Below, piece after piece: positions 28,722 to 63,981 of a stretch of 64,000 nucleotides of DNA; the first letter of the stretch is position 1, and each line of letters starts with the position of its first letter. The notes beneath the pieces are model-generated. The model had not been told where the DNA came from and ran no database searches. It was given only the letters and a program-made list of their open reading frames with translations. Where the stretch lies: the IMG/VR virus record IMGVR_UViG_3300046318_000520, positions 63,704 through 127,703 of that record. One strand, given 5' to 3'. Position numbers and translations under genes: made by a program. The stretch comes from a virus.

Positions 28722-29573
28722 TTAAAAGATATACCGGATACCAGCCGGATCAAAGAATTCTGCATACAGTTTGGTAAAGTCCTGTATCATTTGACGTTTA
28801 AGCTGCCATTGGTAACGGATATTATCTGGTGCATACTGGCTGTCTTTCATTTCCTGTATGTCTGGTCTCCAGATTAATGATCTCACCTCATCTGAGTTAC
28901 GAGCATGTTGATGTACATTATGTGTGAGGAATATACACTCACACTTGACATTTATACCAGCTTCCCAGATTTCCTTAAAAAGTTTGTGATACTCAACTAA
29001 CCACCCGTCATGATAAATGATAGGAGAGAAGTTGATGTGCACTTCCATGTGATTCTGTAGCCTAGTAATACTAGCTATACGATCTGAGATTTTATCTGTA
29101 CCTGGTTCTAATACATCAGAATATATCTGAGGCATCAGGCTTACCCTGACTCTGTGTTTGACCGGGTCCATATTGTACCAATAAGGTAACAACATTGTAG
29201 GATACTTGGTAGCAAACGTGCTTTTAGCCTTGGGCTCTACATTGAAATAGTCAAAGACTATTTGCCAATCATAATGCTTACGCATAAGAGCTACGTCAGT
29301 GCTGCATCCAATATCAATAGTGTAATATTCAGAATCTACTTGATTAGGAATCTTCGGCCAGGGTTGTTTTTGTACCCATTGATCTACAGATGCTATAATG
29401 GGTAAGAAGTTTTCATTGACATACACTTTGTCATGATTATATCTACCTACATAGCAGTAGGAGGACATACATCCTCCTAAACAGCCATATATAAAGTTTG
29501 GACTGATAGCATCAGAGCTACGTCCATTGTCTCTTGTAATAAGAGTTTTAGTTTTTTGCTTGATGATCTGCAT
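28722..29573 (-). CDS. spore photoproduct lyase-like radical SAM protein
   Basis: GCLGGCMSSYCYV Cys cluster; ATKY, RVSLMP, EVHINFSPII, ECIFLTH. Confidence 0.8.
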   Translation of the reverse strand: MQIIKQKTKTLITRDNGRSSDAISPNFIYGCLGGCMSSYCYVGRYNHDKVYVNENFLPIIASVDQWVQKQPWPKIPNQVDSEYYTIDIGCSTDVALMRKHYDWQIVFDYFNVEPKAKSTFATKYPTMLLPYWYNMDPVKHRVRVSLMPQIYSDVLEPGTDKISDRIASITRLQNHMEVHINFSPIIYHDGWLVEYHKLFKEIWEAGINVKCECIFLTHNVHQHARNSDEVRSLIWRPDIQEMKDSQYAPDNIRYQWQLKRQMIQDFTKLYAEFFDPAGIRYIF

Positions 29574-29845: not shown

Positions 29846-29931
29846 GGTTTATGGTTTAATTGTTAAAGAAAGAAAAACCTCCAGTGTAGAAACACCGGAG
29901 GAAAATTTATAATAAACAATAAAAAACTAAG

Positions 29932-30710
29932 TGGAGGTAGCCGGATTTGAACCGGCGTCCAAACGAGAAGTCAATAAACAAAGAGATGTTACATGCTTAG
30001 TACTGATATCTACTCCGGGATCCCGTATGTAAATAATCTGCACCGTAGTTTTGATCTGTTCATTATGTATATCCCGGCAACATGTGTTACGTTAGTTCAA
30101 AAGAACTCGTACAACTCATGGGAGGAGCGGCATCATCTCCATTCTGTCTTAAAAACAATATGAACTAATCAGTAGGGCTGACCATGTTATGGTCCGATCC
30201 ACCACCTGGTTTTAGCTATCAAGTGTGAAACCAGGAAAGTCCACTTTTATACAAGAGGGCACAGGAAGCATACAGTCAGAACTTTGAGAGTTCAATACTC
30301 TTAACGGTTCGTTTGGCCCAGTGTTTATTACCCTTTTCCCCAACCGCCTATCGTCTGTTTAGGTTCCTGACAATGTATAATAGGAGGGCTGGATGTACGT
30401 TCATGACTTTGGGAGCGTAACTCTTAATATCAATGGGCTAGTGTTTATCCTCCTGTTTTTTTGGACCTCATCTATCCAATGTTCCAGAGATGCCGTTTTG
30501 CCATTTTCTGTTGCCAGGGATAGCTCCCCCGTAGGTTAGGCTGCTACTGCAACCTCACCGAAGATAGAAGCTAAAATAGCTTCACCTTCTGCTACACGAG
30601 AAGACTGTGTCTTGCCGTTTAAAAGTTAGCTCCGTGATTAAAGTGGTTTGAGAACCTTCCCACTGCATGTTTGCTTACCACTCACAAGTCTGTCAAAACC
30701 TGTTACCCCC
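29932..30710 (-). ncRNA. ssrA: tmRNA, oversized (~780 nt)
   Basis: 5' GGGGGTAACAGGTTTTGACAG; 3' GGACGCCGGTTCAAATCCGGCTACCTCCA; G3:U acceptor pair; CTAAGCATGTA; tag frame 30616-30536 ends VAVAA*. Confidence 0.9.
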
Positions 30711-30716
30711 ATATTG

Positions 30717-30968
30717 CTAGTTTAAATCTAATGCTTTAGTCCACTTCTTACAAGAAGCTACAGGATCTTTAACATAGTCTGTTAATTCAGCCATTGCAGC
30801 CAACGGATCTGTAAATGCAATGGATTTACATCCAACACGTACTACGCAGCCTGAAGTAAAAAACTGAATAGTCACTTCATACTGCTGTCTTAATTGATCA
30901 GCTGTAGGAATGTACTGATCTGAATAATCATTTTGTGGTTCTGGAACATGTGATAAATCCGGTCTCAT
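30717..30968 (-). CDS. hypothetical protein
   Basis: 83-aa ORF with GCVVRVGCK motif. Confidence 0.65.
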   Translation of the reverse strand: MRPDLSHVPEPQNDYSDQYIPTADQLRQQYEVTIQFFTSGCVVRVGCKSIAFTDPLAAMAELTDYVKDPVASCKKWTKALDLN

Positions 30969-48217: not shown

Positions 48218-48571
48218 ATGATCAATAACCTATACACCTACAAAGCCACTGTCAACCGGATAATTGACGGGGACACAGCAGAACTGACCATTGACCTGGG
48301 ATTCACCGTAAAGTGGAAATCCACTTGCAGGTTCTATGGTATAAACACACCTGAATTAAAAAGCAGAGATGTAGCCGTCAGAGATAAAGCCAAAGATGCC
48401 AGGCTATATGTAAGCACACAATTAATAACAGGACTGGAAGTGATGATTGTTTCCCGTATGCTGGATAAATATGGCAGGCCACTGGTGGATATTTACTACG
48501 GAAAAGATTTTACAAATCATATTAACCAGGAGCTTGTTGACAAGCAACTGGCTGTGACATATTTATTGTAA
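48218..48571 (+). CDS. thermonuclease (SNase) family protein
   Basis: IIDGDT...GINTPE...DKYGRPL. Confidence 0.88.
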   Translation: MINNLYTYKATVNRIIDGDTAELTIDLGFTVKWKSTCRFYGINTPELKSRDVAVRDKAKDARLYVSTQLITGLEVMIVSRMLDKYGRPLVDIYYGKDFTNHINQELVDKQLAVTYLL

Positions 48572-48661
48572 GGTGGTGAAACTGGCAGACACACCTCCCG
48601 GTCTCGGAGGCGGGAGTGGGGAATCCCCGCTCGTTTGGAGGTTCAAATCCTCCCCTTACAG
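48567..48661 (+). tRNA. class II tRNA-like RNA with atypical anticodon loop (GTC)
   Basis: Acceptor TGTAAGG/CCTTACA-G; CCTCC-CGGTCTC-GGAGG; 8-bp variable arm; GGAGG-TTCAAAT-CCTCC. Confidence 0.8.
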
Positions 48662-48693
48662 CTGATTTATTAATTAACAATAAACCTAAAAAC

Positions 48694-63357: not shown

Positions 63358-63981
63358 ATGAGAAATCTGCTACAGGATAAGTCCAAATACTATAAGGTAT
63401 TTGCGGATGACGTGTATAACTCATTCCGTCAGATGCGTTATGGTATCCACTCTGGCCGCCACGACTCAGAATATGAGGTGGCCTCTATAAGAAAAGAACT
63501 GGTGGACTGGCAATCCAATGCAGATAATGATGCCCTTACACAGACCTCTATCAGCTACTATGGCTGGCTTCCTGTTACGTACACCAGTACAGATGAGTCT
63601 GTTGTCTTTAGCTCAGACATTAATGATCCATATCGTTATCTCAAAATATGCTCTACAAACCCTGTGAACGTTGGTGTGAGTTATAACTACGGTACCAACA
63701 GCAATCAAAACCTGATTGATGTTAATACAGGTGGTTGCGTGACCCGGATCAATTTAAACCCGGCTATTACTATTAATAATTCACAGACTGCACAATACAC
63801 CTTCCACCAGGAAGTTGCTTCTGCCACCTGGACCATTAGTCACTCTCTTGGTTTTGTACCTAATGTGCTTACCATGAATGAGTCTGGCCAGGAAATCATG
63901 GGAGCTGTAAGTTCTGCTACTACTACTACTTTGGTAATTCAGTTCTCTGAGCCTGTAACAGGATATGCATACTTATCTTAA
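63358..63981 (+). CDS. putative tail/structural protein
   Basis: C-terminal WTISHSLG..P.V...I.FS.PVTGYAYL domain. Confidence 0.6.
   Translation: MRNLLQDKSKYYKVFADDVYNSFRQMRYGIHSGRHDSEYEVASIRKELVDWQSNADNDALTQTSISYYGWLPVTYTSTDESVVFSSDINDPYRYLKICSTNPVNVGVSYNYGTNSNQNLIDVNTGGCVTRINLNPAITINNSQTAQYTFHQEVASATWTISHSLGFVPNVLTMNESGQEIMGAVSSATTTTLVIQFSEPVTGYAYLS

Follow-up and report, generated by a model that had tools for sequence, protein, structure and literature searches.

Transfer-messenger RNA (tmRNA) is regarded as a compact molecule of some 350-400 nt, and this is the size that its detectors assume. Its ordinary ring consists of the pseudoknots PK2-PK4 and tolerates change. In ribosomal RNA (rRNA), expansion segments are lineage-specific, helix-closed insertions of variable length that occupy fixed sites and grow from existing hairpins. 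Here, a stretch of 64,000 nt of viral DNA (IMG/VR virus record IMGVR_UViG_3300046318_000520, positions 63,704 to 127,703; hereafter the window) was analyzed, in which a one-piece tmRNA gene of 779 nt, roughly double the ordinary size, carries, in its pseudoknot region, two related copies of a structured hairpin module. These copies are probably paralogues of a previously undescribed cassette that is confined to tmRNAs of a single group of freshwater phages, where it lies in the pseudoknot region and where the ring would have undergone a lineage-specific expansion.

Among the closest described systems, the available part of PMC11915505 distinguishes three forms of tmRNA gene and reports group I introns from no site other than the T loop. 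The longest genes it lists measure 1152 bp (a permuted form) and 1116 bp (an intron-containing form), and the commonest tag length is 10 aa; its authors allow that they may have overlooked introns located elsewhere. According to the part of PMC9004378 at hand, 402 of 18,146 phage genomes carry tmRNA genes, and phage Melnitz has a tmRNA in two pieces that is said to be under the control of a glutamine riboswitch. In the literature searched, neither the module nor a cassette-like enlargement of the pseudoknot region of tmRNA was found described; the database of PMC11915505 could already hold members.

Like the standard one-piece tmRNA represented by the Rfam model RF00023, the tmRNA of the window has a tRNA-like domain with a G3-U pair, PK1, a resume site and a tag with a hydrophobic ending in AA, followed by H-type pseudoknots and by the conserved CUAAGCAUGU strand of P2. 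It differs from that standard in its length, 779 nt against the 374 positions of the model, in being missed by ordinary ARAGORN and Rfam-threshold searches, and in a ring enlarged by two cassettes of pseudoknot plus hairpin and by a hairpin expansion of 120 nt. Its tag of 26 aa contrasts with the commonest length given in the available part of PMC11915505. As in the intron-enlarged and permuted genes described there, extra sequence lies within the tmRNA gene, and the phage group itself has T-loop introns; unlike in those genes, so far as that part describes them, the extra sequence of the window lies outside the T loop, in the pseudoknot region, lacks an intron signature and appears to be retained in the RNA.

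The tmRNA gene and its two module copies

The window makes up the second half of a virus record of 127.7 kb with genes for DNA polymerase, terminase, portal and major head proteins. Its tmRNA gene lies on the minus strand at 30710-29932, counted to the discriminator A, and was delimited by ARAGORN, by homologues matching RF00023 and by a pairing check. The acceptor stem, GGGGGUA/UACCUCC, is paired at 7/7 positions with one G-U at position 3; the T arm reads GGACGCCGGUUCAAAUCCGGC and its T loop is intact, the 3' CCA is incompletely encoded (the next letters are CUU), and the resume consensus was identified by ARAGORN. The tag frame (30616-30536, minus strand, called by ARAGORN) encodes the 26 aa GKTQSSRVAEGEAILASIFGEVAVAA, ending VAVAA, and is closed by a UAA stop. 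On the linear window ARAGORN missed the gene; it called the resume consensus, the tag and the two tRNA-like halves only on the excised piece treated as circular. At the gathering score, Rfam gave 0 matches in the window, RF00023 (threshold 47 bits) included, and below threshold this model matched the 3' end of the tmRNA alone (17 bits, E 1.3e-4). Because the scores of homologues drop as their inserts grow, the shortfall would be due to the inserts.

The earlier note, made from the sequence of the window alone, had proposed that two degenerate copies of a structured module lie inside a tmRNA, at 30454-30382 (73 nt) and 30337-30253 (85 nt) of the minus strand. The letters at both places were confirmed, and the location within a tmRNA was borne out by the G3-U of the acceptor stem, the T arm, the resume site and the tag, as well as by homologues that match RF00023 over its full length. 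The copies are more alike than shuffled controls: their global alignment scored 43, against a mean of 10.7 (standard deviation 4.2, maximum 30; z 7.7) in 2000 mononucleotide shuffles. As the note had also described, loop motifs are common to both copies whereas stems differ, the shared elements being AUAAACAC, UUAAGAG, a hairpin, YCAAAGU, UGA, GUA and a closing purine/pyrimidine stem.

The copies are parts of larger units. Alignment A1 and the contigs described below delimit a variable site, site 1, where the window carries an insert of 252 nt (30246..30497, minus strand) that is missing from the relatives in A1 and consists of two tandem units, each a pseudoknot followed by a hairpin module. 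Since an H-type pseudoknot precedes each copy, the repeat unit is larger than the two copies themselves, about 115-135 nt. The ca. 35 nt before each module that can form this pseudoknot contain a conserved GGAAC/GGAAG plus (G/A/C)AUAG/CUAG element. In unit 1, pseudoknot X1 (30461..30492) pairs CAUCU/AGAUG (S1) and UUGG/CCAA (S2) in H-type order, the pairs having been checked and the topology assigned by comparison with the other units; it is followed by module copy 1 (30382..30454), assigned to subtype A, with helices P1 (30454-30449/30387-30382), P3 (30432-30429/30407-30404) and P2 (30423-30420/30416-30413). Unit 2 (30247..30380) is closed by the helix UUAUACA/UGUAUAA (30380-30374/30253-30247; 7/7 pairs) and comprises pseudoknot X2 (30339..30372), which by pairing check forms UGUC/GGCG (S1) and CCUAA/UUGGG (S2), and module copy 2 (30253..30337), of subtype B, with an inner P1 (30334-30331/30259-30256), P3 (30310-30307/30282-30279) and P2 (30300-30297/30291-30288). 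All of these features are on the minus strand. In the relative L134, the counterpart of pseudoknot X2 forms UGUC/GGCA and CCGAC/GUCGG, two S2 pairs being altered on both sides (compared by eye). Unit-closing helices occur elsewhere as GGUACA/UGUAUC in L134 (by eye) and as GACAUG/CAUGUC in units of the L104 type; a closing helix was sought for unit 1 and none was found.

The tandem arrangement is not an assembly artefact, since contigs from two other DNA runs of two other studies are identical to the window: that of run X2 covers 29880-30483, with a gap at 30484-30639, and that of run X3 covers 30165-30760, with 0 differences. Runs X13 and X17 cover the stretch in part, and their uncovered parts were not interpreted. 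A 437-nt contig from an RNA library spans 30656 to 30216 unbroken across both units. Another RNA-library contig swaps exactly 30246-30497 for 120 other letters, and a further contig joins 30245 straight to short-form sequence while keeping part of the expansion at a second variable site (site 2). With boundaries so exact, and with part of site 2 kept where the site-1 insert is missing, the two expansions are gained and lost independently.

Fold, covariation and recurrence of the module

The module folds, by comparison of its versions, into an irregular hairpin in the order P1, AUAAACA loop, P3, A-UUAA, P2, YCAAA, P3', UCCWG loop and P1'. P1 has 5-6 bp and is followed by a strand of 15-20 nt opening with (U/G)AUAAACA; P3, of 3-4 bp, is followed by A (or CG) and then UUAA; P2 has 4 bp and a loop of 3 nt (5 nt in copy 2), after which come YCAAA and P3'; the strand bearing UCCWG, between P3' and P1', measures 14-19 nt and forms a large internal loop with the AUAAACA strand. 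Eight distinct versions of the module were found in 7 distinct tmRNA sequences. They were aligned by hand according to segment lengths, and a second alignment, A6, was fitted to the model structure.

Covariation in homologues was the check that the earlier note had asked for, and among the 8 versions helices P2 and P3 covary. In the hand alignment, canonical pairs occur in 8/8 versions at P3 positions 2-4 (3 pair types each), at P2 positions 3-4 (2-3 pair types) and at P1 positions 3-6. When 3' strands were swapped between sequences, pairing fell from 0.88 to 0.54 for P3 and from 0.88 to 0.68 for P1. In A6, 83.7% of the cells are paired versus 72.0 +/- 2.2 in shuffles (0/500 reach it), P3 being paired at 95.8% and P2 at 96.9%; the covariation score is 0.495 versus 0.259 +/- 0.043 (0/500), and partners slid by 1-3 columns are paired at 25-56%. 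L104 and the first L284 module (L284a), which are 96% identical, differ by U-A versus C-G in P3. A variant of copy 2 from RNA library X13 changes the fourth P2 pair from U-A to C-G (30297, 30291; mapped by hand), shortens the loop from 5 to 3 nt and converts UCAAA to the consensus CCAAA. The U-G wobbles in P2 and P3 would be mismatches on the opposite strand and are compatible with RNA of the minus strand only. The comparative evidence thus describes the module as a structured RNA with conserved loops and covarying P2 and P3.

The module was found only in tmRNAs. A structural descriptor applied to 2.25 Mb, namely the loci of relatives collected to that point plus the whole 127.7-kb phage genome, matched nothing but tmRNAs, namely both window copies and the tmRNAs of L104 with its near-identical L133, L149 and L164, L134 and L138; a strict motif pattern added L284, with two modules, and L285. 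In 585 kb of family loci, covariance model R1 gave eleven module instances with E <=1.3e-11, all of them training members or identical copies, against 17 bits (E 0.5) for the best other match. Copies 1 and 2, both in the training set, scored 78.3 and 55.5 bits, respectively, and both pass the descriptor. The MAFFT alignments A3 and A4 are out of register for P1 and for copy 2, and R1, having been built on A4, is blurred for P1. A relaxed descriptor was dropped from the counts, as it gave four probable false positives outside tmRNAs and missed L134. Searched with exact motifs in one genome per prokaryotic species, the strict pattern gave 3 matches, about the number expected by chance, in coding-looking DNA with no tmRNA nearby, and so gave no evidence that bacterial genomes contain the module. 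In IMG/VR, a looser pattern yielded 11 further matches, all without the P2 helix and without tmRNA context; of two other loose patterns, one gave 0 matches and one at least 119, and none of the loci retrieved passed the descriptor.

The two copies of the window are of different subtypes. The nearest counterpart of copy 1 is L284b, the second module in L284 (76% identity), that of copy 2 is the L134 module (75%), and the two copies share 64% identity; modules of the L104 type form a third subtype (89-96% identity among themselves). The window thus carries subtypes A and B; in L284, a further cassette separates a module of subtype C from one of subtype A. As each copy is nearer to a module of another phage, a simple recent duplication does not account for the pair; the pattern fits an old duplication that would have been followed by reshuffling between phage tmRNA genes. 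The module is absent from 28 of the 35 distinct tmRNA sequences of the family, and is for that reason an optional accessory.

Other large inserts also occupy site 1. Those of L131/L151, L159, L100/L107/L120 and L157, which reach 294 nt (L131), are unrelated to the module, and since none scores with R1, the inserts of L131, L159, L100 and L157 are taken as different cassettes. A third recurrent cassette, GGUACARAGUCCUAUGAUGG...GGAUACUGAUGGCGUG, is common to several tmRNAs (L100, L104, L127, L138 and L284) and has no R1 score either.

Comparison with known classes supported the statement in the earlier note that the elements resemble no named riboswitch or ribozyme. Rfam 15 gave none over the copies or over the second inserted domain, and a cmscan of 29850-30800 with E up to 10 returned 15 weak matches with no riboswitch or ribozyme over the copies, the sole match overlapping copy 1 being to the long non-coding RNA model ST7-AS1_1 (E 8.6). 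Neither at the gathering score nor with E up to 10 did RF00028 (group I intron) match the window. A link to the glutamine riboswitch, prompted by PMC9004378, found no Rfam support in the window.

The tmRNA family, site 2 and the surroundings

Relatives of the tmRNA were gathered by whole-record searches of five records (yielding the tmRNAs of G001 and G005), by a scan for a 3'-end pattern (L096) and by scans for tag-region patterns; the sample is biased, since these scans demanded exact matches to tag or module motifs. The family comprises 35 distinct sequences, a count that takes in L134, L284 and the 5' part of L285. Lengths range over 348-779 nt, the relatives measuring 348-681 nt and the window tmRNA being the longest. 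RF00023 matched over its full length, with 48.7-90.8 bits, in 12 of the 16 relative loci scanned, where the homologues are 355-681 nt long, and ARAGORN called homologous 26-aa tags in two relatives, GTSNVDRVAEGEAILASIFGEVAIAA and GMTQSDRVAEGDAILASLFGEVAIAA. The other 4 loci carry T-loop group I introns (RF00028, 73.9-86.4 bits), at L143:341-555(+), L285:7071-7287(+), L152:2032-2273(+) and L145:299-515(-). Downstream of the intron core of L143 is an open reading frame (ORF) with a start that, read by eye, looks LAGLIDADG-like. The GGGGGU acceptor type of the window and a second type, GGGCCC/GGGCCU with ..GGGUCCA/..AGGUCCA (L102, L112, L122, L131, L134, L136, L148 and L159), both occur within the family.

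Length varies at two sites, and at each of them the window exceeds all other sequences. Among the 30 sequences used of the 35 distinct ones (the markers were unmatched in 5), site 1, between AACAGAAA and GUGGUGG, measures 33-299 nt, and site 2, between GUGGUGG and CUAAGCAUGU, 38-198 nt. At site 2 the window carries a 120-nt hairpin (30171-30052, minus strand) closed by UGAUUAGUUCAU/AUGAACAGAUCA (11/12 pairs), a helix kept in the minimum free energy (MFE) fold. The earlier note had described here a second large inserted domain of about 170 nt closed by UACUGAU (30174-30168) and AUCAGUA (30007-30001). A second large insertion beyond the short relatives does exist, and the two strands are complementary at 7/7 positions, but the inserted part is the 120-nt hairpin, with a different closing helix. 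The helix proposed in the note overlaps the base of this hairpin by 4 nt, and its arms are invariant wherever both occur in the family. In 7 short relatives, the site-2 base helix ACUGAUYAG...CAGAUC caps a tetraloop with a span of 18 nt; the span is 45 nt in L134, 88 nt in L148, 106 nt in L104 and L133 and 120 nt in the window, with extension helices that differ among relatives (by eye). The site-2 domain is thus mainly an expansion of a hairpin already present in short relatives. This graded series of spans recalls the growth of rRNA expansion segments; unlike these, the tmRNA inserts are exchanged as cassettes among close phages, and one of them has strictly conserved loop motifs.

The remainder of the tmRNA is shared with the family. 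Directly 3' of the stop codon, the hairpin GGGGA/UCCCU (30516..30529; pairs checked) is followed by family-conserved GGCAACAGAAAAU; in relatives the hairpin reads GAGCC/GGCUU or GAGCA/UGCUU, the letters changing and the pairing being kept (alignment A1, by eye). Between the two variable sites, at 30174..30245, lies a family-conserved pseudoknot, AAGUG/CACUU plus CCUGGUUU/AAACCAGG (stems assigned by eye), then GGUGGUGG and a hairpin GACCAU/AUGGUC with checked pairs; this region is 96% identical to the tmRNA of G001. Alignments place a further conserved segment, CUACGGUGCAG...AUCAGUA, at 30001..30051, running into CUAAGCAUGUA, the 3' strand of tmRNA P2. About 30 nt past the tmRNA 3' end, an intrinsic-terminator-like hairpin (29878..29901; 10-pair stem, 6 of them G-C) is followed by the U tract TTTTTCTTTC. 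These features, too, are on the minus strand.

The tag itself is kept at 26 aa across the family despite many third-position changes, and an in-frame hairpin of the tag region reads GAAGCUA/UAGCUUC in the window versus GAUGCAA/UUGCAUC in others. Because the peptide is conserved through third-position changes and the changes in the hairpin are compensatory, the tag region seems to be under selection for peptide and fold alike.

The terminase of the window phage shares ca. 25% identity with its counterparts in crAss-like phages of Bacteroides, Flavobacterium and Cellulophaga, and more than 580 IMG/VR contigs carry terminases 78-85% identical to it; the sequencing runs that contain the tmRNA sequence, four of which were compared with it, are mainly freshwater metagenomes. 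With a terminase only ca. 25% identical to crAss-like ones, the phage was placed in a distant, largely uncultured freshwater group, which sequence comparison would make a distant relative of crAss-like phages. BLAST searches, near and distant, of the tmRNA and the surrounding 20 kb against GenBank phages found nothing relevant. Downstream of the tmRNA, a 283-aa gene (28722-29573, minus strand) matches the spore photoproduct lyase family (PF20903, E 3.7e-10), and its protein is 74-85% identical in seven related contigs with otherwise unconserved flanks; in these seven loci no tmRNA adjoins the gene, the tmRNA sitting elsewhere in those genomes. On the plus strand, ARAGORN called a 96-nt tRNA-Asp(GTC) at 48567-48662, but Rfam at the gathering score gives no tRNA in the window, and tRNA matches of 120-128 nt occur in relatives (L131:3665-3784, L285:246-370 and L285:522-649). 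These tRNAs may be intron-containing or otherwise enlarged.

Origin and possible role of the cassettes

Two tandem cassettes at site 1 together with the 120-nt hairpin expansion at site 2 bring the tmRNA to 779 nt. In the explanation that we favour, the cassettes would remain in the mature RNA, as the 437-nt RNA-library contig suggests, as optional expansion segments of the pseudoknot ring, to which they would add independently folding, helix-closed domains; this architectural role is proposed from the comparisons above. The tRNA-like domain, PK1 and the tag frame would be left to perform trans-translation with the SmpB of the host. A gene for SmpB (PF01668) was sought in the 127.7-kb phage record G000 (99% complete according to CheckV) and not found, so that the host protein would be needed. 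The cassettes would spread and be reshuffled by duplication and recombination between the tmRNA genes of related phages.

Several observations weigh against this explanation. Predicted folds do not go beyond shuffles in stability, with MFE z values of -1.2 for copy 1 (29/200 shuffles fold as well), -0.3 for copy 2 (72/200), +0.2 for unit 2 (120/200) and -1.45 for the site-2 hairpin (14/200), and neither the MFE fold of copy 2 nor that of the L134 module shows the P1-P3-P2 arrangement. P1 is just 68.8% paired in A6, compared with 88% in the hand alignment, because its register differs between subtypes. The covariation comes from only 8 versions in three subtypes, A6 is structure-fitted, and kin sequences can outdo shuffles without structure. 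Retention in the RNA is read from a single Logan contig, and RNA libraries such as the one it comes from may include DNA. Lastly, the strictly conserved AUAAACA, A-UUAA, YCAAA and UCCWG point to more than a spacer role, and a purely architectural reading leaves them unexplained.

These invariant motifs keep alive another explanation, close to the inference of the earlier note and unlikely as it seems overall, in which the module is a specific binding element, serving either as a small-molecule aptamer or as the place where a protein of the phage or the host docks, and would make the tmRNA regulatable, a scaffold or a decoy, its two copies giving cooperativity or two specificities. Loops that are invariant or nearly so over three subtypes while stems change usually mark a binding pocket or a tertiary contact, and two non-identical copies are present in two different tmRNAs, those of the window and L284. 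Tandem riboswitch aptamers likewise pair two related modules with conserved loops and variable stems, and the riboswitch-linked tmRNA of Melnitz, as given in the available part of PMC9004378, offers a precedent in a phage tmRNA. Unlike these systems, however, the modules have no Rfam match (glnA, Downstream-peptide, glycine or any aptamer), not even at E up to 10, and are internal to the tmRNA instead of forming a leader: they lie downstream of the tag frame, where ordinary tmRNAs have pseudoknots, with no ligand or expression platform evident. Also against a binding element, 28 of the 35 distinct family tmRNAs do without the module, the predicted folds are not unusually stable, and no candidate partner was found, the phage being without SmpB and the seven neighbouring ORFs scanned being without an RNA-binding Pfam domain. 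A putative aptamer or scaffold role is accordingly less likely than architectural expansion. Its broader form, that the pseudoknot ring is a slot for exchangeable functional cassettes and the module a new aptamer or protein-docking element with two specificities (A and B) that would tune trans-translation or recruit or sequester a host factor, is held as speculative and a shade more doubtful still.

More improbable is that the cassettes are selfish or transient insertions, either mobile elements of the DNA or intervening sequences, and that their excision or cleavage from the transcript leaves a mature tmRNA that is short or in pieces. Their presence or absence at exact boundaries, the cassette order that differs between phages and the short unit-closing helices, which are inverted repeats at the DNA level, would suit such elements; T-loop group I introns have invaded the tmRNA genes of the group at 4/16 loci, and the authors of PMC11915505, in the part available, allow for missed introns at other sites. 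Yet the window holds no match to Intron_gpI or another ribozyme, the RNA-library contig crosses both units without a joint, and compensatory changes and U-G pairs show selection on the fold of the minus-strand RNA. Moreover, the module was not found elsewhere in the 127.7-kb genome or in the 2.25 Mb of loci, and the closing helices have just 6-7 bp, with no target-site duplication seen. As for chance or an assembly artefact as the source of the similarity, the copies are short (73 and 85 nt) and resemble each other partly in A-rich loops, but an alignment score above all 2000 shuffles, homologous modules in other records and contigs of identical sequence in two other runs from two other studies refute this reading, whose probability is negligible.

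Taken as a lineage-specific expansion of the ring, the tmRNA of the window is a known RNA enlarged by a candidate new motif, the module qualifying as such because its loops are invariant and its stems covary. If its role is purely architectural, this small RNA would provide a neat, though modest, example of expansion segments. Given that ordinary ARAGORN and Rfam thresholds both miss the 779-nt gene, enlarged tmRNAs are probably under-counted in the annotation of phages and metagenomes. In this phage group, the pseudoknot ring behaves as though assembled from helix-closed cassettes that can be exchanged, which offers a natural experiment on how far the ring can be enlarged while keeping its function.

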